Part shown: positions 3,001 to 32,602 of the stretch, in pieces
Numbering within the stretch: the first letter of the stretch is position 1
How the letters are laid out: the number at the start of each line of letters is the position of its first letter
Source: Giardia intestinalis
Lineage: Eukaryota
Length of the DNA stretch: 64,000 nucleotides
Direction: 5' to 3' (one strand)
NCBI GenBank assembly: GCA_000002435.2
Contig: CM018793.1
Position numbers and translations under genes: made by a program
Notes under the pieces: generated by a model
Told to the model about the DNA's origin: nothing
Seen by the model: only the letters and a program-made list of their open reading frames with translations
Databases searched by the model: none

Positions 3001-6000
3001 NNNNNNNNNNNNNNNNNNNNNNNNNNNNNNNNNNNNNNNNNNNNNNNNNNNNNNNNNNNNNNNNNNNNNNNNNNNNNNNNNNNNNNNNNNNNNNNNNNNN
3101 NNNNNNNNNNNNNNNNNNNNNNNNNNNNNNNNNNNNNNNNNNNNNNNNNNNNNNNNNNNNNNNNNNNNNNNNNNNNNNNNNNNNNNNNNNNNNNNNNNNN
3201 NNNNNNNNNNNNNNNNNNNNNNNNNNNNNNNNNNNNNNNNNNNNNNNNNNNNNNNNNNNNNNNNNNNNNNNNNNNNNNNNNNNNNNNNNNNNNNNNNNNN
3301 NNNNNNNNNNNNNNNNNNNNNNNNNNNNNNNNNNNNNNNNNNNNNNNNNNNNNNNNNNNNNNNNNNNNNNNNNNNNNNNNNNNNNNNNNNNNNNNNNNNN
3401 NNNNNNNNNNNNNNNNNNNNNNNNNNNNNNNNNNNNNNNNNNNNNNNNNNNNNNNNNNNNNNNNNNNNNNNNNNNNNNNNNNNNNNNNNNNNNNNNNNNN
3501 NNNNNNNNNNNNNNNNNNNNNNNNNNNNNNNNNNNNNNNNNNNNNNNNNNNNNNNNNNNNNNNNNNNNNNNNNNNNNNNNNNNNNNNNNNNNNNNNNNNN
3601 NNNNNNNNNNNNNNNNNNNNNNNNNNNNNNNNNNNNNNNNNNNNNNNNNNNNNNNNNNNNNNNNNNNNNNNNNNNNNNNNNNNNNNNNNNNNNNNNNNNN
3701 NNNNNNNNNNNNNNNNNNNNNNNNNNNNNNNNNNNNNNNNNNNNNNNNNNNNNNNNNNNNNNNNNNNNNNNNNNNNNNNNNNNNNNNNNNNNNNNNNNNN
3801 NNNNNNNNNNNNNNNNNNNNNNNNNNNNNNNNNNNNNNNNNNNNNNNNNNNNNNNNNNNNNNNNNNNNNNNNNNNNNNNNNNNNNNNNNNNNNNNNNNNN
3901 NNNNNNNNNNNNNNNNNNNNNNNNNNNNNNNNNNNNNNNNNNNNNNNNNNNNNNNNNNNNNNNNNNNNNNNNNNNNNNNNNNNNNNNNNNNNNNNNNNNN
4001 NNNNNNNNNNNNNNNNNNNNNNNNNNNNNNNNNNNNNNNNNNNNNNNNNNNNNNNNNNNNNNNNNNNNNNNNNNNNNNNNNNNNNNNNNNNNNNNNNNNN
4101 NNNNNNNNNNNNNNNNNNNNNNNNNNNNNNNNNNNNNNNNNNNNNNNNNNNNNNNNNNNNNNNNNNNNNNNNNNNNNNNNNNNNNNNNNNNNNNNNNNNN
4201 NNNNNNNNNNNNNNNNNNNNNNNNNNNNNNNNNNNNNNNNNNNNNNNNNNNNNNNNNNNNNNNNNNNNNNNNNNNNNNNNNNNNNNNNNNNNNNNNNNNN
4301 NNNNNNNNNNNNNNNNNNNNNNNNNNNNNNNNNNNNNNNNNNNNNNNNNNNNNNNNNNNNNNNNNNNNNNNNNNNNNNNNNNNNNNNNNNNNNNNNNNNN
4401 NNNNNNNNNNNNNNNNNNNNNNNNNNNNNNNNNNNNNNNNNNNNNNNNNNNNNNNNNNNNNNNNNNNNNNNNNNNNNNNNNNNNNNNNNNNNNNNNNNNN
4501 NNNNNNNNNNNNNNNNNNNNNNNNNNNNNNNNNNNNNNNNNNNNNNNNNNNNNNNNNNNNNNNNNNNNNNNNNNNNNNNNNNNNNNNNNNNNNNNNNNNN
4601 NNNNNNNNNNNNNNNNNNNNNNNNNNNNNNNNNNNNNNNNNNNNNNNNNNNNNNNNNNNNNNNNNNNNNNNNNNNNNNNNNNNNNNNNNNNNNNNNNNNN
4701 NNNNNNNNNNNNNNNNNNNNNNNNNNNNNNNNNNNNNNNNNNNNNNNNNNNNNNNNNNNNNNNNNNNNNNNNNNNNNNNNNNNNNNNNNNNNNNNNNNNN
4801 NNNNNNNNNNNNNNNNNNNNNNNNNNNNNNNNNNNNNNNNNNNNNNNNNNNNNNNNNNNNNNNNNNNNNNNNNNNNNNNNNNNNNNNNNNNNNNNNNNNN
4901 NNNNNNNNNNNNNNNNNNNNNNNNNNNNNNNNNNNNNNNNNNNNNNNNNNNNNNNNNNNNNNNNNNNNNNNNNNNNNNNNNNNNNNNNNNNNNNNNNNNN
5001 NNNNNNNNNNNNNNNNNNNNNNNNNNNNNNNNNNNNNNNNNNNNNNNNNNNNNNNNNNNNNNNNNNNNNNNNNNNNNNNNNNNNNNNNNNNNNNNNNNNN
5101 NNNNNNNNNNNNNNNNNNNNNNNNNNNNNNNNNNNNNNNNNNNNNNNNNNNNNNNNNNNNNNNNNNNNNNNNNNNNNNNNNNNNNNNNNNNNNNNNNNNN
5201 NNNNNNNNNNNNNNNNNNNNNNNNNNNNNNNNNNNNNNNNNNNNNNNNNNNNNNNNNNNNNNNNNNNNNNNNNNNNNNNNNNNNNNNNNNNNNNNNNNNN
5301 NNNNNNNNNNNNNNNNNNNNNNNNNNNNNNNNNNNNNNNNNNNNNNNNNNNNNNNNNNNNNNNNNNNNNNNNNNNNNNNNNNNNNNNNNNNNNNNNNNNN
5401 NNNNNNNNNNNNNNNNNNNNNNNNNNNNNNNNNNNNNNNNNNNNNNNNNNNNNNNNNNNNNNNNNNNNNNNNNNNNNNNNNNNNNNNNNNNNNNNNNNNN
5501 NNNNNNNNNNNNNNNNNNNNNNNNNNNNNNNNNNNNNNNNNNNNNNNNNNNNNNNNNNNNNNNNNNNNNNNNNNNNNNNNNNNNNNNNNNNNNNNNNNNN
5601 NNNNNNNNNNNNNNNNNNNNNNNNNNNNNNNNNNNNNNNNNNNNNNNNNNNNNNNNNNNNNNNNNNNNNNNNNNNNNNNNNNNNNNNNNNNNNNNNNNNN
5701 NNNNNNNNNNNNNNNNNNNNNNNNNNNNNNNNNNNNNNNNNNNNNNNNNNNNNNNNNNNNNNNNNNNNNNNNNNNNNNNNNNNNNNNNNNNNNNNNNNNN
5801 NNNNNNNNNNNNNNNNNNNNNNNNNNNNNNNNNNNNNNNNNNNNNNNNNNNNNNNNNNNNNNNNNNNNNNNNNNNNNNNNNNNNNNNNNNNNNNNNNNNN
5901 NNNNNNNNNNNNNNNNNNNNNNNNNNNNNNNNNNNNNNNNNNNNNNNNNNNNNNNNNNNNNNNNNNNNNNNNNNNNNNNNNNNNNNNNNNNNNNNNNNNN

Positions 6001-9000
6001 NNNNNNNNNNNNNNNNNNNNNNNNNNNNNNNNNNNNNNNNNNNNNNNNNNNNNNNNNNNNNNNNNNNNNNNNNNNNNNNNNNNNNNNNNNNNNNNNNNNN
6101 NNNNNNNNNNNNNNNNNNNNNNNNNNNNNNNNNNNNNNNNNNNNNNNNNNNNNNNNNNNNNNNNNNNNNNNNNNNNNNNNNNNNNNNNNNNNNNNNNNNN
6201 NNNNNNNNNNNNNNNNNNNNNNNNNNNNNNNNNNNNNNNNNNNNNNNNNNNNNNNNNNNNNNNNNNNNNNNNNNNNNNNNNNNNNNNNNNNNNNNNNNNN
6301 NNNNNNNNNNNNNNNNNNNNNNNNNNNNNNNNNNNNNNNNNNNNNNNNNNNNNNNNNNNNNNNNNNNNNNNNNNNNNNNNNNNNNNNNNNNNNNNNNNNN
6401 NNNNNNNNNNNNNNNNNNNNNNNNNNNNNNNNNNNNNNNNNNNNNNNNNNNNNNNNNNNNNNNNNNNNNNNNNNNNNNNNNNNNNNNNNNNNNNNNNNNN
6501 NNNNNNNNNNNNNNNNNNNNNNNNNNNNNNNNNNNNNNNNNNNNNNNNNNNNNNNNNNNNNNNNNNNNNNNNNNNNNNNNNNNNNNNNNNNNNNNNNNNN
6601 NNNNNNNNNNNNNNNNNNNNNNNNNNNNNNNNNNNNNNNNNNNNNNNNNNNNNNNNNNNNNNNNNNNNNNNNNNNNNNNNNNNNNNNNNNNNNNNNNNNN
6701 NNNNNNNNNNNNNNNNNNNNNNNNNNNNNNNNNNNNNNNNNNNNNNNNNNNNNNNNNNNNNNNNNNNNNNNNNNNNNNNNNNNNNNNNNNNNNNNNNNNN
6801 NNNNNNNNNNNNNNNNNNNNNNNNNNNNNNNNNNNNNNNNNNNNNNNNNNNNNNNNNNNNNNNNNNNNNNNNNNNNNNNNNNNNNNNNNNNNNNNNNNNN
6901 NNNNNNNNNNNNNNNNNNNNNNNNNNNNNNNNNNNNNNNNNNNNNNNNNNNNNNNNNNNNNNNNNNNNNNNNNNNNNNNNNNNNNNNNNNNNNNNNNNNN
7001 NNNNNNNNNNNNNNNNNNNNNNNNNNNNNNNNNNNNNNNNNNNNNNNNNNNNNNNNNNNNNNNNNNNNNNNNNNNNNNNNNNNNNNNNNNNNNNNNNNNN
7101 NNNNNNNNNNNNNNNNNNNNNNNNNNNNNNNNNNNNNNNNNNNNNNNNNNNNNNNNNNNNNNNNNNNNNNNNNNNNNNNNNNNNNNNNNNNNNNNNNNNN
7201 NNNNNNNNNNNNNNNNNNNNNNNNNNNNNNNNNNNNNNNNNNNNNNNNNNNNNNNNNNNNNNNNNNNNNNNNNNNNNNNNNNNNNNNNNNNNNNNNNNNN
7301 NNNNNNNNNNNNNNNNNNNNNNNNNNNNNNNNNNNNNNNNNNNNNNNNNNNNNNNNNNNNNNNNNNNNNNNNNNNNNNNNNNNNNNNNNNNNNNNNNNNN
7401 NNNNNNNNNNNNNNNNNNNNNNNNNNNNNNNNNNNNNNNNNNNNNNNNNNNNNNNNNNNNNNNNNNNNNNNNNNNNNNNNNNNNNNNNNNNNNNNNNNNN
7501 NNNNNNNNNNNNNNNNNNNNNNNNNNNNNNNNNNNNNNNNNNNNNNNNNNNNNNNNNNNNNNNNNNNNNNNNNNNNNNNNNNNNNNNNNNNNNNNNNNNN
7601 NNNNNNNNNNNNNNNNNNNNNNNNNNNNNNNNNNNNNNNNNNNNNNNNNNNNNNNNNNNNNNNNNNNNNNNNNNNNNNNNNNNNNNNNNNNNNNNNNNNN
7701 NNNNNNNNNNNNNNNNNNNNNNNNNNNNNNNNNNNNNNNNNNNNNNNNNNNNNNNNNNNNNNNNNNNNNNNNNNNNNNNNNNNNNNNNNNNNNNNNNNNN
7801 NNNNNNNNNNNNNNNNNNNNNNNNNNNNNNNNNNNNNNNNNNNNNNNNNNNNNNNNNNNNNNNNNNNNNNNNNNNNNNNNNNNNNNNNNNNNNNNNNNNN
7901 NNNNNNNNNNNNNNNNNNNNNNNNNNNNNNNNNNNNNNNNNNNNNNNNNNNNNNNNNNNNNNNNNNNNNNNNNNNNNNNNNNNNNNNNNNNNNNNNNNNN
8001 NNNNNNNNNNNNNNNNNNNNNNNNNNNNNNNNNNNNNNNNNNNNNNNNNNNNNNNNNNNNNNNNNNNNNNNNNNNNNNNNNNNNNNNNNNNNNNNNNNNN
8101 NNNNNNNNNNNNNNNNNNNNNNNNNNNNNNNNNNNNNNNNNNNNNNNNNNNNNNNNNNNNNNNNNNNNNNNNNNNNNNNNNNNNNNNNNNNNNNNNNNNN
8201 NNNNNNNNNNNNNNNNNNNNNNNNNNNNNNNNNNNNNNNNNNNNNNNNNNNNNNNNNNNNNNNNNNNNNNNNNNNNNNNNNNNNNNNNNNNNNNNNNNNN
8301 NNNNNNNNNNNNNNNNNNNNNNNNNNNNNNNNNNNNNNNNNNNNNNNNNNNNNNNNNNNNNNNNNNNNNNNNNNNNNNNNNNNNNNNNNNNNNNNNNNNN
8401 NNNNNNNNNNNNNNNNNNNNNNNNNNNNNNNNNNNNNNNNNNNNNNNNNNNNNNNNNNNNNNNNNNNNNNNNNNNNNNNNNNNNNNNNNNNNNNNNNNNN
8501 NNNNNNNNNNNNNNNNNNNNNNNNNNNNNNNNNNNNNNNNNNNNNNNNNNNNNNNNNNNNNNNNNNNNNNNNNNNNNNNNNNNNNNNNNNNNNNNNNNNN
8601 NNNNNNNNNNNNNNNNNNNNNNNNNNNNNNNNNNNNNNNNNNNNNNNNNNNNNNNNNNNNNNNNNNNNNNNNNNNNNNNNNNNNNNNNNNNNNNNNNNNN
8701 NNNNNNNNNNNNNNNNNNNNNNNNNNNNNNNNNNNNNNNNNNNNNNNNNNNNNNNNNNNNNNNNNNNNNNNNNNNNNNNNNNNNNNNNNNNNNNNNNNNN
8801 NNNNNNNNNNNNNNNNNNNNNNNNNNNNNNNNNNNNNNNNNNNNNNNNNNNNNNNNNNNNNNNNNNNNNNNNNNNNNNNNNNNNNNNNNNNNNNNNNNNN
8901 NNNNNNNNNNNNNNNNNNNNNNNNNNNNNNNNNNNNNNNNNNNNNNNNNNNNNNNNNNNNNNNNNNNNNNNNNNNNNNNNNNNNNNNNNNNNNNNNNNNN

Positions 9001-12000
9001 NNNNNNNNNNNNNNNNNNNNNNNNNNNNNNNNNNNNNNNNNNNNNNNNNNNNNNNNNNNNNNNNNNNNNNNNNNNNNNNNNNNNNNNNNNNNNNNNNNNN
9101 NNNNNNNNNNNNNNNNNNNNNNNNNNNNNNNNNNNNNNNNNNNNNNNNNNNNNNNNNNNNNNNNNNNNNNNNNNNNNNNNNNNNNNNNNNNNNNNNNNNN
9201 NNNNNNNNNNNNNNNNNNNNNNNNNNNNNNNNNNNNNNNNNNNNNNNNNNNNNNNNNNNNNNNNNNNNNNNNNNNNNNNNNNNNNNNNNNNNNNNNNNNN
9301 NNNNNNNNNNNNNNNNNNNNNNNNNNNNNNNNNNNNNNNNNNNNNNNNNNNNNNNNNNNNNNNNNNNNNNNNNNNNNNNNNNNNNNNNNNNNNNNNNNNN
9401 NNNNNNNNNNNNNNNNNNNNNNNNNNNNNNNNNNNNNNNNNNNNNNNNNNNNNNNNNNNNNNNNNNNNNNNNNNNNNNNNNNNNNNNNNNNNNNNNNNNN
9501 NNNNNNNNNNNNNNNNNNNNNNNNNNNNNNNNNNNNNNNNNNNNNNNNNNNNNNNNNNNNNNNNNNNNNNNNNNNNNNNNNNNNNNNNNNNNNNNNNNNN
9601 NNNNNNNNNNNNNNNNNNNNNNNNNNNNNNNNNNNNNNNNNNNNNNNNNNNNNNNNNNNNNNNNNNNNNNNNNNNNNNNNNNNNNNNNNNNNNNNNNNNN
9701 NNNNNNNNNNNNNNNNNNNNNNNNNNNNNNNNNNNNNNNNNNNNNNNNNNNNNNNNNNNNNNNNNNNNNNNNNNNNNNNNNNNNNNNNNNNNNNNNNNNN
9801 NNNNNNNNNNNNNNNNNNNNNNNNNNNNNNNNNNNNNNNNNNNNNNNNNNNNNNNNNNNNNNNNNNNNNNNNNNNNNNNNNNNNNNNNNNNNNNNNNNNN
9901 NNNNNNNNNNNNNNNNNNNNNNNNNNNNNNNNNNNNNNNNNNNNNNNNNNNNNNNNNNNNNNNNNNNNNNNNNNNNNNNNNNNNNNNNNNNNNNNNNNNN
10001 NNNNNNNNNNNNNNNNNNNNNNNNNNNNNNNNNNNNNNNNNNNNNNNNNNNNNNNNNNNNNNNNNNNNNNNNNNNNNNNNNNNNNNNNNNNNNNNNNNNN
10101 NNNNNNNNNNNNNNNNNNNNNNNNNNNNNNNNNNNNNNNNNNNNNNNNNNNNNNNNNNNNNNNNNNNNNNNNNNNNNNNNNNNNNNNNNNNNNNNNNNNN
10201 NNNNNNNNNNNNNNNNNNNNNNNNNNNNNNNNNNNNNNNNNNNNNNNNNNNNNNNNNNNNNNNNNNNNNNNNNNNNNNNNNNNNNNNNNNNNNNNNNNNN
10301 NNNNNNNNNNNNNNNNNNNNNNNNNNNNNNNNNNNNNNNNNNNNNNNNNNNNNNNNNNNNNNNNNNNNNNNNNNNNNNNNNNNNNNNNNNNNNNNNNNNN
10401 NNNNNNNNNNNNNNNNNNNNNNNNNNNNNNNNNNNNNNNNNNNNNNNNNNNNNNNNNNNNNNNNNNNNNNNNNNNNNNNNNNNNNNNNNNNNNNNNNNNN
10501 NNNNNNNNNNNNNNNNNNNNNNNNNNNNNNNNNNNNNNNNNNNNNNNNNNNNNNNNNNNNNNNNNNNNNNNNNNNNNNNNNNNNNNNNNNNNNNNNNNNN
10601 NNNNNNNNNNNNNNNNNNNNNNNNNNNNNNNNNNNNNNNNNNNNNNNNNNNNNNNNNNNNNNNNNNNNNNNNNNNNNNNNNNNNNNNNNNNNNNNNNNNN
10701 NNNNNNNNNNNNNNNNNNNNNNNNNNNNNNNNNNNNNNNNNNNNNNNNNNNNNNNNNNNNNNNNNNNNNNNNNNNNNNNNNNNNNNNNNNNNNNNNNNNN
10801 NNNNNNNNNNNNNNNNNNNNNNNNNNNNNNNNNNNNNNNNNNNNNNNNNNNNNNNNNNNNNNNNNNNNNNNNNNNNNNNNNNNNNNNNNNNNNNNNNNNN
10901 NNNNNNNNNNNNNNNNNNNNNNNNNNNNNNNNNNNNNNNNNNNNNNNNNNNNNNNNNNNNNNNNNNNNNNNNNNNNNNNNNNNNNNNNNNNNNNNNNNNN
11001 NNNNNNNNNNNNNNNNNNNNNNNNNNNNNNNNNNNNNNNNNNNNNNNNNNNNNNNNNNNNNNNNNNNNNNNNNNNNNNNNNNNNNNNNNNNNNNNNNNNN
11101 NNNNNNNNNNNNNNNNNNNNNNNNNNNNNNNNNNNNNNNNNNNNNNNNNNNNNNNNNNNNNNNNNNNNNNNNNNNNNNNNNNNNNNNNNNNNNNNNNNNN
11201 NNNNNNNNNNNNNNNNNNNNNNNNNNNNNNNNNNNNNNNNNNNNNNNNNNNNNNNNNNNNNNNNNNNNNNNNNNNNNNNNNNNNNNNNNNNNNNNNNNNN
11301 NNNNNNNNNNNNNNNNNNNNNNNNNNNNNNNNNNNNNNNNNNNNNNNNNNNNNNNNNNNNNNNNNNNNNNNNNNNNNNNNNNNNNNNNNNNNNNNNNNNN
11401 NNNNNNNNNNNNNNNNNNNNNNNNNNNNNNNNNNNNNNNNNNNNNNNNNNNNNNNNNNNNNNNNNNNNNNNNNNNNNNNNNNNNNNNNNNNNNNNNNNNN
11501 NNNNNNNNNNNNNNNNNNNNNNNNNNNNNNNNNNNNNNNNNNNNNNNNNNNNNNNNNNNNNNNNNNNNNNNNNNNNNNNNNNNNNNNNNNNNNNNNNNNN
11601 NNNNNNNNNNNNNNNNNNNNNNNNNNNNNNNNNNNNNNNNNNNNNNNNNNNNNNNNNNNNNNNNNNNNNNNNNNNNNNNNNNNNNNNNNNNNNNNNNNNN
11701 NNNNNNNNNNNNNNNNNNNNNNNNNNNNNNNNNNNNNNNNNNNNNNNNNNNNNNNNNNNNNNNNNNNNNNNNNNNNNNNNNNNNNNNNNNNNNNNNNNNN
11801 NNNNNNNNNNNNNNNNNNNNNNNNNNNNNNNNNNNNNNNNNNNNNNNNNNNNNNNNNNNNNNNNNNNNNNNNNNNNNNNNNNNNNNNNNNNNNNNNNNNN
11901 NNNNNNNNNNNNNNNNNNNNNNNNNNNNNNNNNNNNNNNNNNNNNNNNNNNNNNNNNNNNNNNNNNNNNNNNNNNNNNNNNNNNNNNNNNNNNNNNNNNN

Positions 12001-23562: not shown

Positions 23563-25419
23563 TCACGCCTTCCCCCTGCACACGAACCACCAGCAGAGGA
23601 AGCCCACGAGGCCCCCCACGACAGCGATGACAGCCACGGAGATCCCTGCTATGGCACCAGTACTGAGGCCGCTTCTGTTGCCCCCGCTGGGCTTGGTGGA
23701 CACGCACGCCTCACCCTCCAGCCTGTAGTCGTCCCCACACTGGCCGCACTTGTTCTCCTCGCTGCACCTGACGCACCCGTCGATATTGCAGGCGATGCAC
23801 TTCGTTCCGTCTGTGTTCGGCCTCTGGTCTTTACTGGTACAGGCCTCGCACTTATCGCCTGCTCCACAGTGCGAGCATCCGTCAACGGTACATGCGAAGC
23901 ACCCGCTCCCAGCCAGGTTGGGCTTGTTGTTGTTGGTACACGCTGTACACACAGCAGCAGTCATACCAGTCTCAGATGGAGCTGCTGGGGCCGTACATGC
24001 CGAACAGCCATCTACCCCCACATATGCCTTAGAGGTATCACCAGTGCCTACTAGTGTGCCAAGGGAGTTGCTACATGCCAATACAGACTGATTCTGATTG
24101 GTTGCCCCAGGGACTATGAAGTACCTATTGTTGGCATTAACAGCAGTACAGACACCGTTGGCTGCTGTCTTGCACATATGTTGTCCAGGTACTGTATCAA
24201 CCTTGTAACAACCTCCCATATACAAGAAGTAGTTGTTAGTGCATTGTGTACATACACCTTGATCACATTGATTATTTGCTTTAGCACTATTACACTTCCC
24301 ATCTATAGGATACGTATTAGCTTCTCCACAGTATGAGCAATAATGATGCTCTACACCCTTATCATCAATCACTATTGCATCGCAGGCACCAGAAGTTCCT
24401 CCACAGGCAGTATCATCTTCACAGATCTTGGTGCATGTGACAGAGCCAGTACTGCCCTCCTTGCGATAGTTAGGCTTACAGTCAGTGCACTTGAAAGCAC
24501 CGTTGTTAGAGCAGACACTGCAGCCTTCGCGACCCTTATCGTCTACGCTATCGCATGGGACGCACTTCTTCCCCTGTTGATCTGTAGTAGTTACTAAGAA
24601 GTATCCAGTCTTGCAGGTTTCACACTTATTTGGATCACCAGCAACAGAGCATGTGGCACAGTTATCACCACACTTGTCTGTACATGTACTAGTACCACTA
24701 TCAAAGAAGTATCCATCGAGACAGGCTGAGCAGGTTGGATTGTCACTTCCTGTTTTCGTACATGTCTTGCAGTTGGCCTTTCCTTCGTTACCAAGAGTTG
24801 AATCTGTCACATCACTACAAAGAGCACACGTTTTGTCCTCCTTCATAAATAAGGCCTCGTCAGCGCCCTCGCATCCTTCAAGCGTCTTCGCCACGCAGGT
24901 CGATGTCCCGTCGAGGGCCGTCCTGGGGGTCTTATTGGTCCCGCAGTTAGTGCACTTCGGCTTCCCCGTGGCCTTGTCGAAGGAGCATGCCGTGCACTCT
25001 GCGTGTATCGTACTACATGCCTTGCATGTTCCCGACTCCGGGTCAGCATAAGTGTTTCCATCGCATCCAGTATCTTGTACACATTGATTACTCTTCAGGT
25101 ACTTCCCCTCTGGGCACGATGTACAATGATTCTGACCACTTCCATCGCAGGTCAGACAAGCTTCATTACATTTGACACATGTCTGAGAGTTCTTGTAGTA
25201 TCCATCTTGGCACTCTGTACACGTGGCAGGTCCTGGACTACTGTCTGACTTGGTACACTGTGCGCAGTTAGCCACCCCTGTATATCCATCTGCCCCATTG
25301 ACATCATGACAGAGGATGCACTCACTACCAGGCTTCTGAGGTGTAACTGGGTTCTTGAACAGGCCGTTATCTGCTTTACAAGCAGTGCACACTCCTCCCT
25401 CAGCCTTTGTGCATATCAC
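23563..25419 (-). CDS. Variant-specific surface protein (array unit 3). Intact 618-codon body with TM and CRGKA tail, but no ATG and no signal peptide
   Basis: Cys-rich with CXXC repeats and a GGCY motif. The C-terminus is NRSGLSTGAIAGISVAVIAVVGGLVGFLCWWFVCRGKA*. The frame is open only from 25425, preceded by TAG. The first residues WSVICTKAEGGVCTACKADNGLFKNP correspond to residue ~105 of the head VSP. The codon at 25417..25419 is GTG. Confidence 0.85.
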   Translation of the reverse strand: MICTKAEGGVCTACKADNGLFKNPVTPQKPGSECILCHDVNGADGYTGVANCAQCTKSDSSPGPATCTECQDGYYKNSQTCVKCNEACLTCDGSGQNHCTSCPEGKYLKSNQCVQDTGCDGNTYADPESGTCKACSTIHAECTACSFDKATGKPKCTNCGTNKTPRTALDGTSTCVAKTLEGCEGADEALFMKEDKTCALCSDVTDSTLGNEGKANCKTCTKTGSDNPTCSACLDGYFFDSGTSTCTDKCGDNCATCSVAGDPNKCETCKTGYFLVTTTDQQGKKCVPCDSVDDKGREGCSVCSNNGAFKCTDCKPNYRKEGSTGSVTCTKICEDDTACGGTSGACDAIVIDDKGVEHHYCSYCGEANTYPIDGKCNSAKANNQCDQGVCTQCTNNYFLYMGGCYKVDTVPGQHMCKTAANGVCTAVNANNRYFIVPGATNQNQSVLACSNSLGTLVGTGDTSKAYVGVDGCSACTAPAAPSETGMTAAVCTACTNNNKPNLAGSGCFACTVDGCSHCGAGDKCEACTSKDQRPNTDGTKCIACNIDGCVRCSEENKCGQCGDDYRLEGEACVSTKPSGGNRSGLSTGAIAGISVAVIAVVGGLVGFLCWWFVCRGKA

Positions 25420-25494
25420 ACTCCACTATCACTATCACCCATTATCACCCACTATCACCTTCTATCACACATTGTACAGCATTCACTACCTAAG
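25420..25494 (-). repeat. VSP inter-unit junction element J3 (five GTGATAG-like heptamers)
   Basis: Minus strand reads TGA-cttaggtAGTGAATgctgtacaatgtgtgatagaaggtgatagtgggtgataatgggtgatagtgatagtggagtgtgATATGCACAAAGG. Confidence 0.85.
25481..25487 (-). terminator. Poly(A) signal AGTGAAT for the 1024-aa VSP
   Basis: AGTGAAT lies 7 nt downstream of the TGA stop at 25495..25497. Confidence 0.65.
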
Positions 25495-28400
25495 TCACGC
25501 CTTCCCTCTACATATGAACCACCAGCAGAGGAAGCCCACGAGGCCCCCCACGACAACGACCACAGCCACGGAGATGCCCGCGATGGCCCCCGTGGAGAGC
25601 CCGCTCTTGTTGACGCTTCCGCCGGTGTTGTCGCCAGTGCCGTCGCCCATCACGAAGCACATGAACGCACCGGTGGATGACACCGTGCACTGCCTGCACC
25701 CAGCGAGCCCCTCAGAGCACGGATTACACTTTGTCCCAGCACTCTGCGGTTTGTAATATCCAGTGCTGCATGTAGCACAGGCGTTAGCGTCGTTAGCAGC
25801 CGTGCATGTCTCGCAGCTAAGATGGCACCTTTTATTGGAACAATCGCCATTATCAGCCGTTAGACCACTGGCACATTTTGTACATTTTCCTCCCTGCACT
25901 GTAGTACACACTTGCTTGCCAGGCTGTCTATCTGTCTGATAGCAACCGCCATCTTTGAGGAAGTAGTTATTTTCACATTGAGTGCATGCTCCATTACTCA
26001 CCGTAGTGCAAAATCGTGTTCGCGTATTGGCCGCACAGTTGCCATCCAGTGGTGCCTGTTGAGTGTTCTTGCACTTTGAGCAGTATGCAGTTCCTCCTAT
26101 CTGAGCCCCACACTCTGCGCATCCATCGTTTGTAGAACTCACGCTGCACTGGTTCATGCACGTGCCCCCATTGGCAGGAGTATCAGCATCTGTATACTGA
26201 AGCATCCTCCCAGCAGGACAAGCCGTACACTTATCAGCGCCCTCACCCTTGCACTCTACGCACGCATCGTTGCACTTCTTGCACTTTCTGTCAGTGTCAT
26301 TTCCGTAGTAGCCCTTGAGGGTCGTGCAGTCAGATACGCATTGACTGGTTGGGGTGAGGTAGTACTCAGACAGACACTTTGTACAGACCTCCTTATCGGC
26401 ACCTTCACTGGTGCACTCCAAACAGTGCTCTGTGTTACAGTTACTGATTGGTTGGCATTCAGTCGATTCAGTATTAGGTTGGAGTCCTTCGTTGCACTCG
26501 CACACTTGGCTATCCTGTCCGGTGGCCTTGGGGGTAGAGTTAGCAGGGCAACTAGCAACGCACGACTTTCTGTTGAGACCAAAGATGGTCTTCGTATCAG
26601 TCGTACACGTCTTACAAACCACTCCGTTGGCGCCTTTCTCACAAGTGGTGCAGTCAGTTGTTCCAGCCGACACACATGTATTGCACTCCTTTGCTTCTTC
26701 ATCAACGTAGTGGGTTGCCGGACAACCAGCTGTGTCAACGCACGTGCCGGTTGTGGACTCGCCATCCTTCTTCAGGTACTTCTTGGTCCCAGACGTTTTA
26801 CACAGGCTGCACTTCTGTTGCTCCTTGGCCACGCACACAGCGCAATTATCATCTGCACACGCGGTGCACTTCTTCTCGGTAGCGTCGATGAAGAAGCCCT
26901 CCTCATTAGTACACGCCTCTGCGCTAACACAGCTGGGTGCATCGCCAGCTTTAAAGTAGAATCCATCAACACACTCCCCACATATATTGTCCACCACACA
27001 GCTCTTGCAATCACCCACAGAGCATGTCACACACCCACTGCCGTCCTTGTTGGGCACCTTACCACTGTCACAGGAGGTACACACAGCGGCAGTCATACCA
27101 CCATCAGACAGAGCTGTTGGGGCCGTGCATGCTGAGCAGTTGAGTACCCCAACGTATGCCTTAGCATTGTCTTGAGTACCTATTAGTGTGCCTAATGGGT
27201 TACCACATGCTAGTACAGACTGCTGAGCATTGGTTGCCTCTGGGACTACGAAGTATCTATTGTTGGCCGCTTCTGTGCATATCCCAGTATTACCTGCTGT
27301 CTTGCACATATGACTACCTGGTTCTTGACCAACCTTGTAACAGCCATTCATGTATAAGAAGTACCCTTGAGCACACTGTGTACATGTATGACTGTTACAA
27401 GTATTACCTTTCTTATCAGTAGCACAGATGCCATCAATTGGTACCTTAGTACTCTCCCCACAGTATGAGCAATAGTGAAGCTCCTTTCCATCAGCACCGA
27501 TCACTATGGCATCACAAGAGCCAGCTGTCCCCCCACAAGCAGTCTCATCCTCGCAGGTCTTCTCTGTGCATGTATAGTTGTCTGAGGTTCCAACGGGCTT
27601 CCTGTTAGGCTTGCACTTTGTACACTTGAGGGATCCTGCAGGACCAGTGCACTCAGCACATCCATCGATGCCCTCCTGTGCATTATCACAAGGAAGGCAC
27701 TCACCAGTAGGACCACTGCCTTTCATGAAGAATCCAGGCTTGCATTTAGTACACTGATTATTGCCAGCTTGAGTGCAGGTGGCGCAATTCTCGCCACAGA
27801 CTGTGCATGTAGCGGTACCACTACCACTATTTGCGCTATTGTAGTATCCGTCGAGGCATGTCTTGCACTGAGGATTTGTACCAGAATTAGCTTTAGAGCA
27901 TGTGCTACAACCAAGAACACCTGTATTGCCAGGGGTTGAATCTACATTATTACTGCAGAGAATGCACTTTTTGTTCGGTTCAGTTAGAAAGTTCGGACCA
28001 TCGTTCCCGTTTTGGGTACAAGCCCCCTCAGCAATGCAGGTGGTCGTCCCGTCGGCCTCTTCTTTGACTATCTTACCAGTACATGTCAGGCACTTCGGCT
28101 TCTGCAGCGTCGTATCATACTCACATGTGTCGCATCCATCTATCCCCACTTCTTGAGCGTTACAAGCTGTGCACTTGCCGGTGCTTGGGTCGGGGTACTT
28201 ATTTCCAGTGCATTGACCAGCCTCTACGCAAGTGTTAGTATCAGTCTTCAGGAACGTATTTCCCTTACAAGAGGTACAGTGGGTCGCCTCAGTCTCACAG
28301 GTGGCACAGTTCCCTTGGCACTTCTCACATGTCTGAGCGTTCTTATAGTATCCATCTCTGCAGGTATCACACGTGGCCGCTCCTGGACTACCACTTGGTG

Positions 28401-28569
28401 CCGTACATGTGGCGCAGTTAGCCACCCCTGTATATCCATCTGCCCCATTGACATCATGACAGAGGATGCACTCGCTACCCTTCTCTGGTGTTGCAGCCGG
28501 GTTCTTGAACAGGCCGTTATCTGCCTTACAAGCAGTGCACACTCCACTACTGGCCTTTGTGCATATCAC
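25495..28569 (-). CDS. Variant-specific surface protein (array unit 2). Intact 1024-codon body with TM and CRGKA tail, but no ATG and no signal peptide
   Basis: It is about 12% Cys, with CXXC repeats. It ends ...NKSGLSTGAIAGISVAVVVVVGGLVGFLCWWFICRGKA*. It begins with (GTG)ICTKASSGVCTACKADNGLFKNPAATPEKGSECILC directly after junction J4. Confidence 0.85.
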   Translation of the reverse strand: MICTKASSGVCTACKADNGLFKNPAATPEKGSECILCHDVNGADGYTGVANCATCTAPSGSPGAATCDTCRDGYYKNAQTCEKCQGNCATCETEATHCTSCKGNTFLKTDTNTCVEAGQCTGNKYPDPSTGKCTACNAQEVGIDGCDTCEYDTTLQKPKCLTCTGKIVKEEADGTTTCIAEGACTQNGNDGPNFLTEPNKKCILCSNNVDSTPGNTGVLGCSTCSKANSGTNPQCKTCLDGYYNSANSGSGTATCTVCGENCATCTQAGNNQCTKCKPGFFMKGSGPTGECLPCDNAQEGIDGCAECTGPAGSLKCTKCKPNRKPVGTSDNYTCTEKTCEDETACGGTAGSCDAIVIGADGKELHYCSYCGESTKVPIDGICATDKKGNTCNSHTCTQCAQGYFLYMNGCYKVGQEPGSHMCKTAGNTGICTEAANNRYFVVPEATNAQQSVLACGNPLGTLIGTQDNAKAYVGVLNCSACTAPTALSDGGMTAAVCTSCDSGKVPNKDGSGCVTCSVGDCKSCVVDNICGECVDGFYFKAGDAPSCVSAEACTNEEGFFIDATEKKCTACADDNCAVCVAKEQQKCSLCKTSGTKKYLKKDGESTTGTCVDTAGCPATHYVDEEAKECNTCVSAGTTDCTTCEKGANGVVCKTCTTDTKTIFGLNRKSCVASCPANSTPKATGQDSQVCECNEGLQPNTESTECQPISNCNTEHCLECTSEGADKEVCTKCLSEYYLTPTSQCVSDCTTLKGYYGNDTDRKCKKCNDACVECKGEGADKCTACPAGRMLQYTDADTPANGGTCMNQCSVSSTNDGCAECGAQIGGTAYCSKCKNTQQAPLDGNCAANTRTRFCTTVSNGACTQCENNYFLKDGGCYQTDRQPGKQVCTTVQGGKCTKCASGLTADNGDCSNKRCHLSCETCTAANDANACATCSTGYYKPQSAGTKCNPCSEGLAGCRQCTVSSTGAFMCFVMGDGTGDNTGGSVNKSGLSTGAIAGISVAVVVVVGGLVGFLCWWFICRGKA

Positions 28570-28638
28570 ACTCCACTATCACCCTCTATCACCCATTATC
28601 ACACACTATCACACATTGTATAGCATTCACTACCTGAG
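28570..28638 (-). repeat. VSP inter-unit junction element J4 (four heptamers)
   Basis: Minus strand reads TGA-ctcaggtAGTGAATgctatacaatgtgtgatagtgtgtgataatgggtgatagagggtgatagtggagtgtgATATGCACAAAGG. Confidence 0.85.
28625..28631 (-). terminator. Poly(A) signal AGTGAAT for the head VSP
   Basis: AGTGAAT lies 7 nt downstream of the TGA stop at 28639..28641. Confidence 0.65.
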
Positions 28639-30885
28639 TCATGCCTTCCCTCTACATATGAACCACCAGCAGAGGAAGCCCACGAGGCCCCCCACGACGA
28701 CGACCACAGCGACGGAGATCCCCGCGATGGCCCCCGTGGAGAGCCCGCTCCTGTTGGTGCCAGAGGACACACACATGCCATCCCTCGGGACATAGCCCTC
28801 CTCGCACTCCCCGCAGACGCCCTCTGCGCTGCACCGCATGCACCTCTCTATGTCACAGACAATGCACTGGGTGCCGTCCAGGCTGGGTCTCTGGTCTTTA
28901 TTGGTACATGCCTCACACTTGTTGTCTGCGCTGCAGTGAGAGCAGCCCTGGGCCGGACACACATAGCAGGTGCTTCCAGCCATGTTGGGCTTCTTATTGT
29001 CCTCAGCACACACCTCGCACATCCCGTCGATGGCGCAGCTCTTGCACCCGCCGACCGCACACAGGGTGCACCCGCTGCCATCCTTGTTGGGCTTCTTCGT
29101 CTTGTCGCACGCACTACAGACCGCCGCGGCCATCGCATTGGCGGCTGGCGCCTGCGGGGCCGCGCACGCCGTGCAGTCTAGCACGCCGACGTACGCCTTG
29201 TCGCCCGCGGTCGCTCCCACAGGGTTGCCACAGGCAAGCACGGACTGCTGAGCAGCAGAGTCCCCAGGAATCTTGAAGTAGCGCCCGACCGGTGTGGTGC
29301 AGAACCCACTTGGAGCCGCAGAGCACATGAGGTTGCCAGGAGCCTTCGACACATCATAGCAACCACCCATATAGAGGAAGTAGTTGTTGGTGCACCGCGT
29401 ACATACGCCATCGGCGCAGGTATTACCTGCAAGTGCATTGGTGCACTTCCCATTAATAGGGCCATAGCCGGCGCCAACACACTTTGAACAGTAAGAGAGC
29501 ATGCTGCCGTCGTTGCCGACCACGATGGCGTCGCAGGCCCCTGCTGTCCCCCCGCATGCAGTCTCATCTTCACAGGTCTTTGTACACGTATAGTCATCCC
29601 CTGCTCCTCCATTGGACTGCTTCTTATAGTTAGGCTTACATTCAGTGCACTTAAATCCACCGTTGCTAGAACATAGACTGCACCCTTCGCGGCCACCATC
29701 TGGTGTACTGTCGCATGCAGCACACTTCGTTTCACCCTCGGTTTTTAGGAAGTACCCAGGAAGGCACTCAGTACAAGTTGACACATCAGCTGACGTGCAG
29801 GTGGCACAGTTGGAGGCACAAGCCGAACAAGTCTTTGATGACTGTTCAAAGAAGTATCCATCCAAACAACTTGTGCATTCTGGTTTCTGACTTTGCTGCT
29901 TAGTACATGTCTTACACCCGGCAATCCCCTTATCGTTTGCGCCAGCGCCAGGGGACGCATCGCCGCAAAGGGCGCATGTGGTATCGTCCTTCATAAATAA
30001 GGCCCCGTCAGCGCCCTTGCACCCGTCAAGCGTTTTATCGACGCAGGTCGAGGTCCCATCAAGGGTCGTCCTGGGGGTCTTCTGACTACCGCAGGCTGTG
30101 CACTGAGGCTTCCCCGTGGCCTTGTCGAAGGAGCATTCTGTGCAATCAGTTATTGTACTACATGCCTTGCACTTCCCCGACTCTGGGTCAGGATAAACGG
30201 TGTTTGTGCATTCTCCTTCTGCCACACAGCTATTGCCGTCCTTCAGATAGAAGCCCGCTTTACAAGAGGTACACTGGGTCGCCGATGTCTCACAAGTGGC
30301 GCAGTTCCCCTGGCATTGTACACATGCGCCTTTAGCATCTTTATAATATCCATCTTGGCATTCTGTACACGTGGCAGCCCCCTTGTTACTGTCTGACTTG
30401 GTACACTGTGCGCAGTTCTCTACTCCCGTATATCCATCTGCTCCCTTGATATCAGAGCACAGGATGCACTCACTACCAGGCTTCGGTGCTGTAGCCGGGT
30501 TCTTGAACAGGCCGTTATCTGTCTTACAAGTAGTACACACTCCATCACTGGCCTTTGTACATATCTCACTGCCAGGATCTTGTCCTACCTTGTAGCACCC
30601 TCCCATGAAGAGGAAGTACCCGTCGCCGCACTTCCCGCAGGTGGTTGCCGTCTTGTCGAGGGTAGCCCCGTCTTCCTCGGTGCACCCGGCTGCCGCGGCC
30701 TGGGGGGAGCCGGGGGGCCAGCAGAAGCCGTCGACCGGGACGCCCCCGGCCCTGCACTGGGTGCAAATCTCGGTGGCCCCGACCGTCTCGCACTTATTCT
30801 GTGCGCAGGTCGCTGTATGGTTCCCGTCTGGCTGGCAGGCCGCCATGAGCGCGCTCGCCACGAACAGGGGTATCAGTTGGAACAT
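28639..30885 (-). CDS. Variant-specific surface protein, complete. Head gene of the array, with signal peptide, Cys-rich ectodomain, TM and CRGKA tail
   Basis: The first in-frame ATG is at 30885 (MFQLIPLFVASALMAACQPDGNHTATC...), a hydrophobic signal peptide. The 811-codon tool ORF starts upstream at a GTG inside GC-rich non-coding DNA. The C-terminus is ...NRSGLSTGAIAGISVAVVVVVGGLVGFLCWWFICRGKA*. 748 aa. Confidence 0.9.
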   Translation of the reverse strand: MFQLIPLFVASALMAACQPDGNHTATCAQNKCETVGATEICTQCRAGGVPVDGFCWPPGSPQAAAAGCTEEDGATLDKTATTCGKCGDGYFLFMGGCYKVGQDPGSEICTKASDGVCTTCKTDNGLFKNPATAPKPGSECILCSDIKGADGYTGVENCAQCTKSDSNKGAATCTECQDGYYKDAKGACVQCQGNCATCETSATQCTSCKAGFYLKDGNSCVAEGECTNTVYPDPESGKCKACSTITDCTECSFDKATGKPQCTACGSQKTPRTTLDGTSTCVDKTLDGCKGADGALFMKDDTTCALCGDASPGAGANDKGIAGCKTCTKQQSQKPECTSCLDGYFFEQSSKTCSACASNCATCTSADVSTCTECLPGYFLKTEGETKCAACDSTPDGGREGCSLCSSNGGFKCTECKPNYKKQSNGGAGDDYTCTKTCEDETACGGTAGACDAIVVGNDGSMLSYCSKCVGAGYGPINGKCTNALAGNTCADGVCTRCTNNYFLYMGGCYDVSKAPGNLMCSAAPSGFCTTPVGRYFKIPGDSAAQQSVLACGNPVGATAGDKAYVGVLDCTACAAPQAPAANAMAAAVCSACDKTKKPNKDGSGCTLCAVGGCKSCAIDGMCEVCAEDNKKPNMAGSTCYVCPAQGCSHCSADNKCEACTNKDQRPSLDGTQCIVCDIERCMRCSAEGVCGECEEGYVPRDGMCVSSGTNRSGLSTGAIAGISVAVVVVVGGLVGFLCWWFICRGKA

Positions 30886-31074
30886 TAGAGGGTCCCCTGC
30901 TGTGGCCTCTACCCCGTCTGTGGCTACCCAGCACGGCACACGGGGGGAGCGCTGTTCCACCCCTGCCTTGGAGGCCCCTGTCTCGACTCGGCCCACAGCA
31001 CCAGAGCGTGGTGGTCTTCCACTCTTGGGCGCCGCACAGCCCGTCTCCGTGCCCAAGCGGCTCACCCCAGGCAC

Positions 31075-31900
31075 TCATACGACGGAGACCCCCGCGGCAG
31101 TGCTACCGGCAGGCGGGCTGTGCTGATGTCCGGCCCGGCGCAGAGCTCAGAGGGCTCAGAAGGTCATGGCTCCTTTGGTGTCTGCTATGTCATTCTCCTT
31201 GCTCGGTTGACATGCGCGCTGCTAAGAGGGCCCTCATTCACTCGAGCTCATGCCCCCCTGTGGTGACTCTGCTCGACCATCAGCGAGGGTCCCGGTCCTC
31301 CTCCCAATAGGCCGGCCTCAGGTCCCCCGTGATCTGCCAGACCGGGCAGAGCGATCGCGGCGCCCATCAGAGCCTGAGCCGACGGGGCCCGCAGTGCAGT
31401 GCGCCTGGACCCACGGAGATCGTTCACCCGCCCAGTGGGCCACAGCTTCCCCTGCCCTGCTGACAGTCCTCCAGCGAGGGGCATGTCGTTGTGGGGCAGT
31501 CTTCTCGTCCTGCCGTGCACACAGGGCCCAACCGGTGGCCGTCGGACAGTCCCGATGGCATGCCTGAAGCCCCGCCACGGCAAGAGGGCAGCACACGGGG
31601 CGGCCCCTACGCTGCTACAGATTGCAATGGCAGCAGAGACCCCCTGCCCGAGAGGCCCGTGCATTGGCTGTGGCGGCCATCCACTCCATGCGGGCCCGGT
31701 GCGGCGCTCCTGGAGAGCCCTTGCCTCCGGTGGTGCTGACAGGGCTCCCGAGGTACTAAGGCGTCAGACGAGGGACGGGGCCGAGCAGGACTCCCGGCCC
31801 GCATGCAGATGTCTCTGCTGTCTGCCCGGTCCTGTAGAGACCCGAGCCACCAGACATCTACATCTCGGATGGCGGTGCTTCGGGCTACCTAAGACGACCC
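31075..31900. other. GC-rich non-coding block upstream of the head VSP
   Basis: About 0.8 kb is markedly GC-rich compared with its flanks. Only short mutually overlapping ORFs occur on both strands. No Cys-rich or otherwise recognisable protein signature is present. Confidence 0.5.
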
Positions 31901-32602
31901 TCCAGTCGCTAGACTCCCTCTGAGTCTAAATCGTTGTCTGCAAGGTGAATAGCAACTACATAGAATATTGGCAGCTGTAGAGTACTTAGCTGTTGGCGCA
32001 ATGCTTTATGATACATGTTGTGTAGTTGCTAGTTGTCTGCGCACGGTAGCTATTCCTGTATGCCTCACTCTGTAATGGGTGAGATGATAAAAGTAGGAGA
32101 AACTGGAAGGTAGTTGTGCAGGTAGTTTGGAGACTTCATTCTAGGAAGCGTCTACATGCTCCAAAGAAGCTGTGCAGACGTTGAAGCAAAGTGGGAGCGC
32201 TCTCTTCTATCACACTCTAGAGGGATGCGCCCCGTGAAAGATAGCTCTTCTGAAGTCACGGAATCTTTGCTCTGTGACTACATTCTCGCGCCTGCAACCC
32301 TCATTTTCATCTGAAGGCACGTTAGCCGTTAGCTTCTCCAGGCTTGCTCATTGGCTTTCTGAAAAAGGCATGAAAGGTGAGCTCTTCTGCTACTAAACTA
32401 TGCTACATAAGTACCAGAGCAAAGGTGCAGCAATAACTGGGTCATAGCTTGAATTTCACTTCGAGGATAGAATTCAAGAACGGTAATGTGGATCGAAGTA
32501 AAGCTCTAGTTACGTACGCGACATCCACATCTTATACAAGCATCGATGGTGCAGTAATAGCGTAGTCACGCACTAAATGTGAATATTTACTACACTGTGT
32601 AC

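Follow-up and report, generated by a model that had tools for sequence, protein, structure and literature searches.

According to Adam et al. 2010 (PMC2996952, BMC Genomics 11:424), more than half of the vsp genes of Giardia intestinalis isolate WB, which encode variant-specific surface proteins (VSPs), are held in "linear arrays". These arrays may be a donor reservoir or a graveyard of discarded genes. One such locus lies in the window analysed here, a stretch of 64,000 nucleotides (NCBI GenBank assembly GCA_000002435.2, contig CM018793.1), and raises the question of what joins each unit of an array to the next: its four inter-unit junctions, called J1 to J4 in order of position and with J4 at 28570-28638 (Table 1), follow a single plan that includes a variable tract of GTGATAG-like repeats. 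Here, we propose that this element is probably the inter-unit joint of a VSP linear array, made of a poly(A) signal, a minisatellite scar and the damaged beginning of the unit that follows, and spread by unequal crossing-over or gene conversion. Its sequence-level anatomy—a tract of period 10, variable copy number, long and short forms, a block of identity around the junction and restriction to array junctions—is apparently undescribed in the literature that we found. The finding adds detail to the known picture of VSP arrays rather than a new kind of element.

The locus is a VSP linear array of G. intestinalis WB (assemblage A). Five units lie head to tail on the minus strand from 19833 to about 30885 of the window, and the spacers between them (61, 61, 75 and 69 nt) are of the size expected for arrays, in which neighbours range from overlapping to being 241 bp apart and intervening regions average 60 bp (Adam et al. 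2010). The first unit, A, is 100% identical to the WB protein VSP P0001, and units A, B and C match Pfam PF03302 with E-values of 1e-39 to 1e-84. The CXXC-rich composition and the conserved 3′ end of about 117 nt that encodes the transmembrane segment and CRGKA, both characteristic of VSPs, are present: CRGKA is followed by the stop in A, B and C, that is, at three of the four junctions, and the copy of unit D is broken by a 1-nt deletion. An initiator (Inr) is found only at the first member, where TAATGTT lies at 30887 below about 1.7 kb of non-coding upstream DNA; units B to E have neither an ATG nor an Inr where they start. In what is available of Adam et al. 2010, the WB arrays agree with the window in their head-to-tail units, spacers of about 60 bp, Inr and long upstream region at the first member alone, and contigs that end at arrays; later members, which lack the initiator, are proposed there to be silent recombination cassettes or discarded genes, and the spacers are given by length and not by sequence anatomy. 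VSP pseudogene arrays without the 5′ portion are also described in a 2022 preprint (10.1101/2022.03.07.483299).

Three layers of the joint

On the minus strand, each of the four junctions separates a TGA stop from the first in-frame codon of the VSP open reading frame that follows. Aligned, they have a mean column identity of 85%, bearing out the single architecture and the order of parts that an initial annotation, made from the sequence of the window, had proposed. This common order is TGA, CTYRGGT, AGTGAAT, GCT(G/A)TACAATG(G)T, the GTGATAG-like copies and then TGGAGTG(A/T)GATATGCACAAAGG. The 17-mer TGTACAATGTGTGATAG, with up to three mismatches allowed, has three matches in the window compared with 0.19 expected, all of them in junctions; J1 escapes this search because of a 1-nt insertion. 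GTGATAG itself occurs 15 times in the window (5.83 expected), with 11 of the 15 copies inside junctions, and tandem pairs of the motif occur within the window at the junctions only. A lone GTGTGATAGAAG at 32207-32218 (minus strand), about 1.3 kb upstream of unit A, equals 12 nt of J3 and has no neighbouring poly(A) signal or VSP remnant; it is probably a chance occurrence.

The layer nearest to the stop corresponds to a known signal. The assignment of AGTGAAT as the Giardia poly(A) hexamer holds and can be extended, as together with CTYRGGT before it and GC after it the hexamer makes up the extended poly(A) signal published as specific to VSPs, ACTTAGGTAGT[AG]AA[CT]GC, located 0-15 nt after the stop (PMC3091692; Jerlström-Hultqvist et al. 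2010). An alternative form of this signal, ACUUAGRUAGURAAYRY, lies in a VSP or a VSP pseudogene at 323 of its 327 genomic hits (bioRxiv 10.1101/2022.03.07.483299). The published motif is matched exactly at J3 and with one mismatch each at J1, J2 and J4. It spans the A of TGA through AGTGAATGC, about 20 nt after each stop, and so covers just a quarter to a third of a junction. We suggest that the stop and this extended signal, ACTYRGGTAGTGAATGC, would direct 3′-end formation of the transcript of the upstream unit. At the published hexamer-to-cleavage distance of 13-16 nt, counted from where the hexamer starts (bioRxiv 10.1101/2022.03.07.483299), cleavage is predicted to fall within T(G/A)TACAATGT, a few bases short of the first GTGATAG, and the tract would therefore lie outside the mature mRNA. 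No further motif emerged from a published MEME search of the 200 bp that follow VSP genes, a result that fits a tract confined to array joints. The first 10 nt of the VSP 3′ untranslated region are also the seed match of a published miR2 target (PMC2583053); as an explanation of the tract this was rejected, the overlap being limited to those 10 nt, which belong to the poly(A)-signal part.

Past the predicted cleavage site would come the second layer, a C-free tract of three to five copies of a 10-nt unit. The copy numbers given initially (3, 3, 5 and 4 from J1 to J4) are reproduced when one mismatch to GTGATAG is allowed, but the repeat is not a heptamer: the period found by Tandem Repeats Finder is 10, with 3.9 copies at J3 and 4.0 at J4 and 83-86% matches, and the repeat unit consists of the GTGATAG core plus three variable nucleotides, at spacings that are occasionally 6 or 8 nt. 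The sense strand of the tracts contains no C at all. Every decamer has a WGATAR core (TGATAG or TGATAA), phased at about 10 bp, one helical turn; a literature search turned up no GATA-type factor of Giardia.

The third layer is where the joint meets the next unit. GGAGTG, annotated initially as a distinct junction end, reads in codon terms as a frameshifted remnant of coding sequence and not as a separate linker: TGG-AGTGAGATATGC equals GGC AGT GAG ATA TGY (G S E I C) of unit A minus one nucleotide. The start of units B to E corresponds to about residue 108 of unit A (...PGSE|ICTKASDG...). The first residues of the next unit, which the junction end was initially said to encode, are those of a 5′-truncated cassette with no ATG, Inr or signal peptide.

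Several other identities for the element were considered and rejected. A structured RNA has neither an Rfam match (none at E≤1 in 19833-32500) nor a folding signal, the folding z-scores ranging from -1.07 to +1.70 over both strands. By inspection, the G-runs are too short and far apart for a G-quadruplex, and the sense strand shows neither a 5′ splice site of the Giardia consensus nor a 3′ motif ACACACAG, as would befit a spliced intron joining units.

Occurrence at other loci

The same joint is present at seven junctions in three Giardia contigs (L004, L005 and L006) that come from three different ENA metagenome assemblies. The layout there is a stop, CTYAGGT, AGTGAAT, GCT(A/G/C)TA(C/T)A(A/G)TGT and then 3-7 GTGATAG-like copies, with copy numbers of 3, 3, 3, 3, 7 and at least 4. 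Four proteins of the older WB annotation (XP_001703902.1, XP_001706653.1, XP_001707667.1 and XP_001707663.1) have N-termini, such as MLYSDSDSDSAMWCGGDSGGVGLFFMGGCYK, that read through a joint, corresponding to translation from the ATG in AGTGAATGCTGTACA via the GTGATA repeats into the next unit, with the DNA deduced by back-translation. Across these paralogous junctions the copy number ranges from 3 to 7, and the microsatellite-like behaviour attributed initially to the tract is plausible.

Outside array junctions, the tract was not found in the DNA sampled. Five solitary or terminal VSP genes, of which one each is from an ENA contig, isolate DH and P15 and two are from GS_B, lack it in their 3′ flanks: the poly(A) signal is present there, and the sequence then diverges immediately. 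Tandem pairs of the motif are lacking in 101.6 kb of other Giardia loci and in 177 kb of unrelated DNA, and the motif is absent at non-VSP genes in 44 kb of the window and in the same 101.6 kb. The initial annotation had named occurrence at non-VSP genes, or absence from other VSP loci, as the outcomes that would count against it; neither was found, as no sampled non-VSP DNA has the motif and other arrays carry it. Its expectation that the motif would be confined to VSP 3′ ends held in that all occurrences are at VSPs, but it was too broad, as array junctions alone among the sites sampled have the motif. Searching JGI metagenomes for GGTAGTGAATGCTRTACA returned 26 matches, close to the count that pattern length and collection size had led us to expect, with nothing Giardia-like among them.

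Two assemblage-B-type arrays, L034 and L035, have a joint with neither the poly(A) signal nor the tract. The joint thus belongs specifically to array junctions and is shared by arrays of the assemblage A lineage; among VSP arrays at large it is not universal, as the sampled assemblage-B-type arrays use another. Their own recurrent joint (L034 11842-11895 and L035 4101-4144) follows an upstream unit broken in the transmembrane segment (…GISVTKSS…C*), with a spacer of about 45 nt, and the next unit keeps its signal-peptide coding region, the start reading CAGTGTTGTTAGC instead of CAATGTTG…. Many assemblage B "partial" VSPs begin with VNDPAGVSIDSLCRP after a conserved GC-rich segment ending …AGTGTGAGTGAACGATCC (L003 2940-3062, L034 9880-10000 and L035 2150-2225), which suggests a second family of 5′-truncated units with a shared upstream joint. 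That these "VNDPAGV..." proteins mark a second poly(A)-fused junction was considered and rejected, as their AGTGAAC sits in the conserved GC-rich upstream region and not after a stop.

Homogenization, history and competing explanations

How could one joint come to stand between units that differ so much? The unit bodies share 67-77% nucleotide identity in BLAST segments, and between about -100 and +190 relative to the stop identity climbs to 80-93%. Around J1, a block of about 157 nt equals the surroundings of J2 (about 23462-23617) bar two 1-nt indels; it runs from the end of the transmembrane-coding sequence through the joint to CTGCTTGTAA, and beyond either end similarity falls off abruptly. 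A comparable likeness, over a longer stretch, exists between J3 and J4. Junction-centred identity between diverged bodies cannot be explained by recent duplication of whole units; it requires conversion centred on the junction, or a swapping of bodies through crossovers in the conserved ends. Sequence exchange is also suggested inside the units. A direct repeat of 300 nt at 100% identity (284 nt exact) links 22243-22542 in unit D with 29245-29544 in unit A, both on the minus strand, whereas outside it the two units are about 70% identical or unalignable. This looks like a recent gene conversion between an expressible VSP and a pseudogene cassette, and it implies that conversion operates within the array. 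The two events—there are only these—differ in placement, the J1/J2 block being centred on the joint and the A/D tract lying internal to the units. We propose that the uniformity of the joints would be maintained by unequal crossing-over or gene conversion, for which the end encoding the transmembrane segment and CRGKA, the joint and the first 100 nt or so of the next unit would supply the substrate, and that copy number would drift by replication slippage.

An earlier state of the joint may be preserved in the metagenome contig L006. At one of its junctions (L006_a), seven tract copies run into ...GGGACTTCTCTTCATAGGAGGATGCTACAAG...CCCGGCAGCGAGATATGC (G L L F I G G C Y K ... P G S E I C), and the unit begins about 18 codons further upstream than those of the window. 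The odd stretch GTGATAGTATGATAGTGG is common to L006_a, J1 and J2; after it, L006_a has 66 extra nucleotides ending in CCCGGC before AGCGAGATATGC, and both forms resume with AG(C/T)GAGATATGC. Most simply, the window form would be derived from the longer joint by a 66-nt deletion, a deletion being preferred to an insertion because the 66 extra nucleotides are homologous to VSP coding sequence. The joints would thus be inherited from one ancestral duplication joint, the long form of which (...GLLFIGGCYK...PGSE ICT) lost 66 nt. Elsewhere the tract meets the coding sequence at other places: in L004 and L005 the final repeat copy passes seamlessly into GTG ATA TGC, and in two further L006 junctions (L006_b and L006_c) it is fused to a stub for the last 70 residues only. 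[quoted passage not shown] The repeat core resembles the coding sequence GTGAGATA at the fusion point, which would favour slippage or microhomology-mediated deletions. An ordinary minisatellite or microsatellite has the same tandem 10-nt units with point variants, spacings of 6, 8 or 10 nt and paralogue-dependent copy number, all of which fit slippage; the junction tract differs in holding a fixed place within a composite joint whose conservation extends across arrays, and in the fusion of its last copy with the coding start of the next unit.

Where the repeats came from is a separate matter. It is possible, although on balance doubtful, that they are the trace of a vestigial start: CAATGTGTGATAG would be what is left of the initiator, the ATG and the opening signal-peptide codons (CAATGTTGTTGATAG, M L L I A) of a downstream gene that was once complete, and from this remnant the repeats would have grown by slippage. 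A real VSP start, in L033, reads CAATGTTGTTGATAGCG; the proposed remnant is located exactly where the start of the downstream gene would be expected; and the downstream units of the assemblage-B-type arrays retain the full signal-peptide region with a mutated start. The junction aligns with CAATGTTGTTGATAG over 13 matched bases with two 1-nt gaps, a score reached by 43 of 5,000 shuffles and 14 of 5,956 genomic windows, although the comparison was post hoc and the shuffle figures overstate its significance. Against such an origin, no intermediate forms were found among the joints compared, and the long-form joint also aligns with the KCGDGYFLFM coding region, a competing source of the core. A further possibility, compatible with a vestigial start, is that GTGATAG grew from GGT GAT GG, the G-D-G codons of KCGDGYFLFMGGCY.

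Several points weigh against a decaying scar that descent and conversion have spread. The direction of the 66-nt change is deduced from homology, and both the use of the poly(A) signal at the internal junctions and the site of cleavage are predictions. Units B (1,024 codons) and C (618 codons) are still open even though they lack a start, which simple neutral decay does not predict. The conservation of the T(G/A)TACAATGT block and the tract across the arrays of different isolates could mean constraint instead of descent and conversion. The other Giardia loci compared are, moreover, a small sample.

A more active part for the tract—as a protein-bound or break-prone site at which the conversion of silent cassettes into expressed VSPs would begin or end—is unlikely, even though its placement would suit one. 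One tract lies directly upstream of every start-less cassette (four junctions in the window and seven in L004-L006), differing 5′ truncation points (GLLFIGGCYK, ICTKA/ICTAA and the stub for the last 70 residues) all lie behind the same tract, the block of about 157 identical nucleotides is centred on a junction between otherwise diverged units, and conversion does occur in the array. The clear A/D conversion tract is, however, internal and not bounded by junctions, the J1/J2 block is explained equally well by passive homology, and assemblage-B-type arrays without the tract argue against any conserved requirement for it in VSP arrays. In Trypanosoma brucei, 70-bp repeats lie upstream of silent variant surface glycoprotein genes. 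The Giardia tract is similarly a short, imperfect, strand-asymmetric repeat in variable copies directly upstream of a silent, often defective antigen cassette that has a conserved 3′ end on its other side. The likeness does not extend to sequence, and a presence throughout the silent arrays of the family, as for boundary repeats of the T. brucei type, is not seen in L034 and L035; switching in Giardia is, moreover, regarded as epigenetic or post-transcriptional. Adam et al. 2010 propose downstream members as recombination cassettes, and describe VSP switching as epigenetic and not due to DNA rearrangement (PMC2996952). The initial proposal of a recombination or processing signal is therefore covered on its processing side by the known poly(A) signal, and on its recombination side the junction-centred block fits passive homology just as well.

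A role of the tract in processing itself is rather improbable. As a G/T-rich sequence, it might act like the GU-rich element of metazoans, downstream of the poly(A) signal, boosting cleavage or stopping read-through: it starts 3-8 nt past the predicted cleavage site, its first copies are GU-rich (UGUGUGAUAG), and the 3′ flanks of solitary VSPs are also G/T-rich after the signal. Such an element is nevertheless unlikely because long-read mapping found a depletion of GU-rich motifs, not an enrichment, downstream of Giardia poly(A) signals (PMC9014877) and because solitary VSPs, including those of the expressed type, lack the tract. Only low-confidence CstF candidates are known in Giardia (PMC9014877), and the copy number varies freely from 3 to 7. 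There is very little to be said for an artefact, by which the junctions would be alike through recent tandem duplication or through a collapsed or misassembled repeat beside a gap. The array does adjoin a 19.8-kb N run, and J1 and J2 are nearly identical; the unit bodies, at 67-77% identity, are not recent copies, and further examples of the joint come from three independent metagenome assemblies and, by implication, from several other WB loci.

If the joint is merely a scar, as we judge most likely, the result is mainly an aid to annotation: being array-specific, the joint can be used as a sequence tag to find and count units, to anchor long-read assemblies that break at arrays, and to genotype isolates by copy number. 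The identity block and the 300-nt A/D tract nonetheless show that sequence moves within the array, and the idea of a cassette reservoir can be tested by mapping breakpoints. Were the tract an active conversion boundary, the pseudogene arrays would be a working donor library for new VSPs.

The array and its units

The features of the locus are collected in Table 1. Unit B has no identical protein on record, the best match being 81%, and the missing exact protein is consistent with treatment of the unit as a pseudogene. Unit C was called in the older WB annotation from an internal ATG (P0099, XP_001705784.1, 427 aa). P0099 and unit C differ in two residues (…LACENPLG… versus …LACSNSLG…), which points either to differing assembly versions or to a second near-identical copy. 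The further a unit lies from the head gene, the greater its decay, from complete (A) through open and start-less (B and C) and frameshifted (D) to a unit with many stops (E). Positions 1-19832 of the window are all N, so that the array adjoins a gap or padding; unit E is incomplete at this N run, and the array may extend further than seen.

Table 1 Features of the VSP array and its joints in the window
Feature	Position	Strand	Description
J4	28570..28638	-	Same layout as J1-J3; parts in the next four lines
J4, stop and VSP extended poly(A) signal	28623..28641	-	(tg)ACTCAGGTAGTGAATGC; hexamer AGTGAA at 28626-28631
J4, TATACAATGT block	28613..28622	-	Predicted cleavage at about 28615-28619; contains Inr-like CAATGTG
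J4, decamer tract	28576..28612	-	GTGATAGTGT GTGATAATGG GTGATAGAGG GTGATAG; 4 copies, C-free; Tandem Repeats Finder
J4, TGGAGTGTGATATGCACAAAGG	28554..28575	-	Frameshifted remnant of the G-S-E-I-C-T-K codons of the next unit, by comparison with GGCAGTGAGATATGTACAAAGGC internal to unit A and repeat family D7
J3	25420..25494	-	Same layout; tract 25426-25468, 5 copies, two merely 6 nt apart
J2	23502..23562	-	Same layout; tract 23512-23536, 3 copies (GTGATAGAGG GTGATAGT ATGATAG)
J1	21194..21254	-	Same layout; tract 21203-21227, 3 copies; 1-nt insertion (CAATGGTG)
Block of about 157 nt centred on J1	21153..21309	-	Same as the surroundings of J2 bar two 1-nt indels
Unit A	28639..30885	-	Complete head VSP gene, 748 aa; Inr-type start TAATGTT, signal peptide MFQLIPLFVASALMAAC, C-terminus CRGKA
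Homologue, within unit A, of the starting point of units B-E	30524..30600	-	…PGSE|ICTKASDGVCTTC…; repeat family D7, fifth copy
Unit B	25495..28569	-	1024 open codons; no ATG, Inr or signal peptide; CRGKA end; opens at GTG 28569
Unit C	23563..25419	-	618 open codons; start-less VSP cassette; CRGKA end
Unit D	21255..23501	-	Frameshifted VSP cassette; CRGKA codons disrupted by 1-nt deletion
Unit E	19833..21193	-	Strongly decayed VSP cassette, stops in all frames; ended by N run

Upstream of the ATG of unit A, the reading frame is open for 63 further codons. The region upstream of this head gene (31080-31900) is GC-rich, with 62% GC in the bin 30001-32000 compared with 43-50% elsewhere; the 2022 preprint (10.1101/2022.03.07.483299) remarks that sequence upstream of VSP genes is high in GC.

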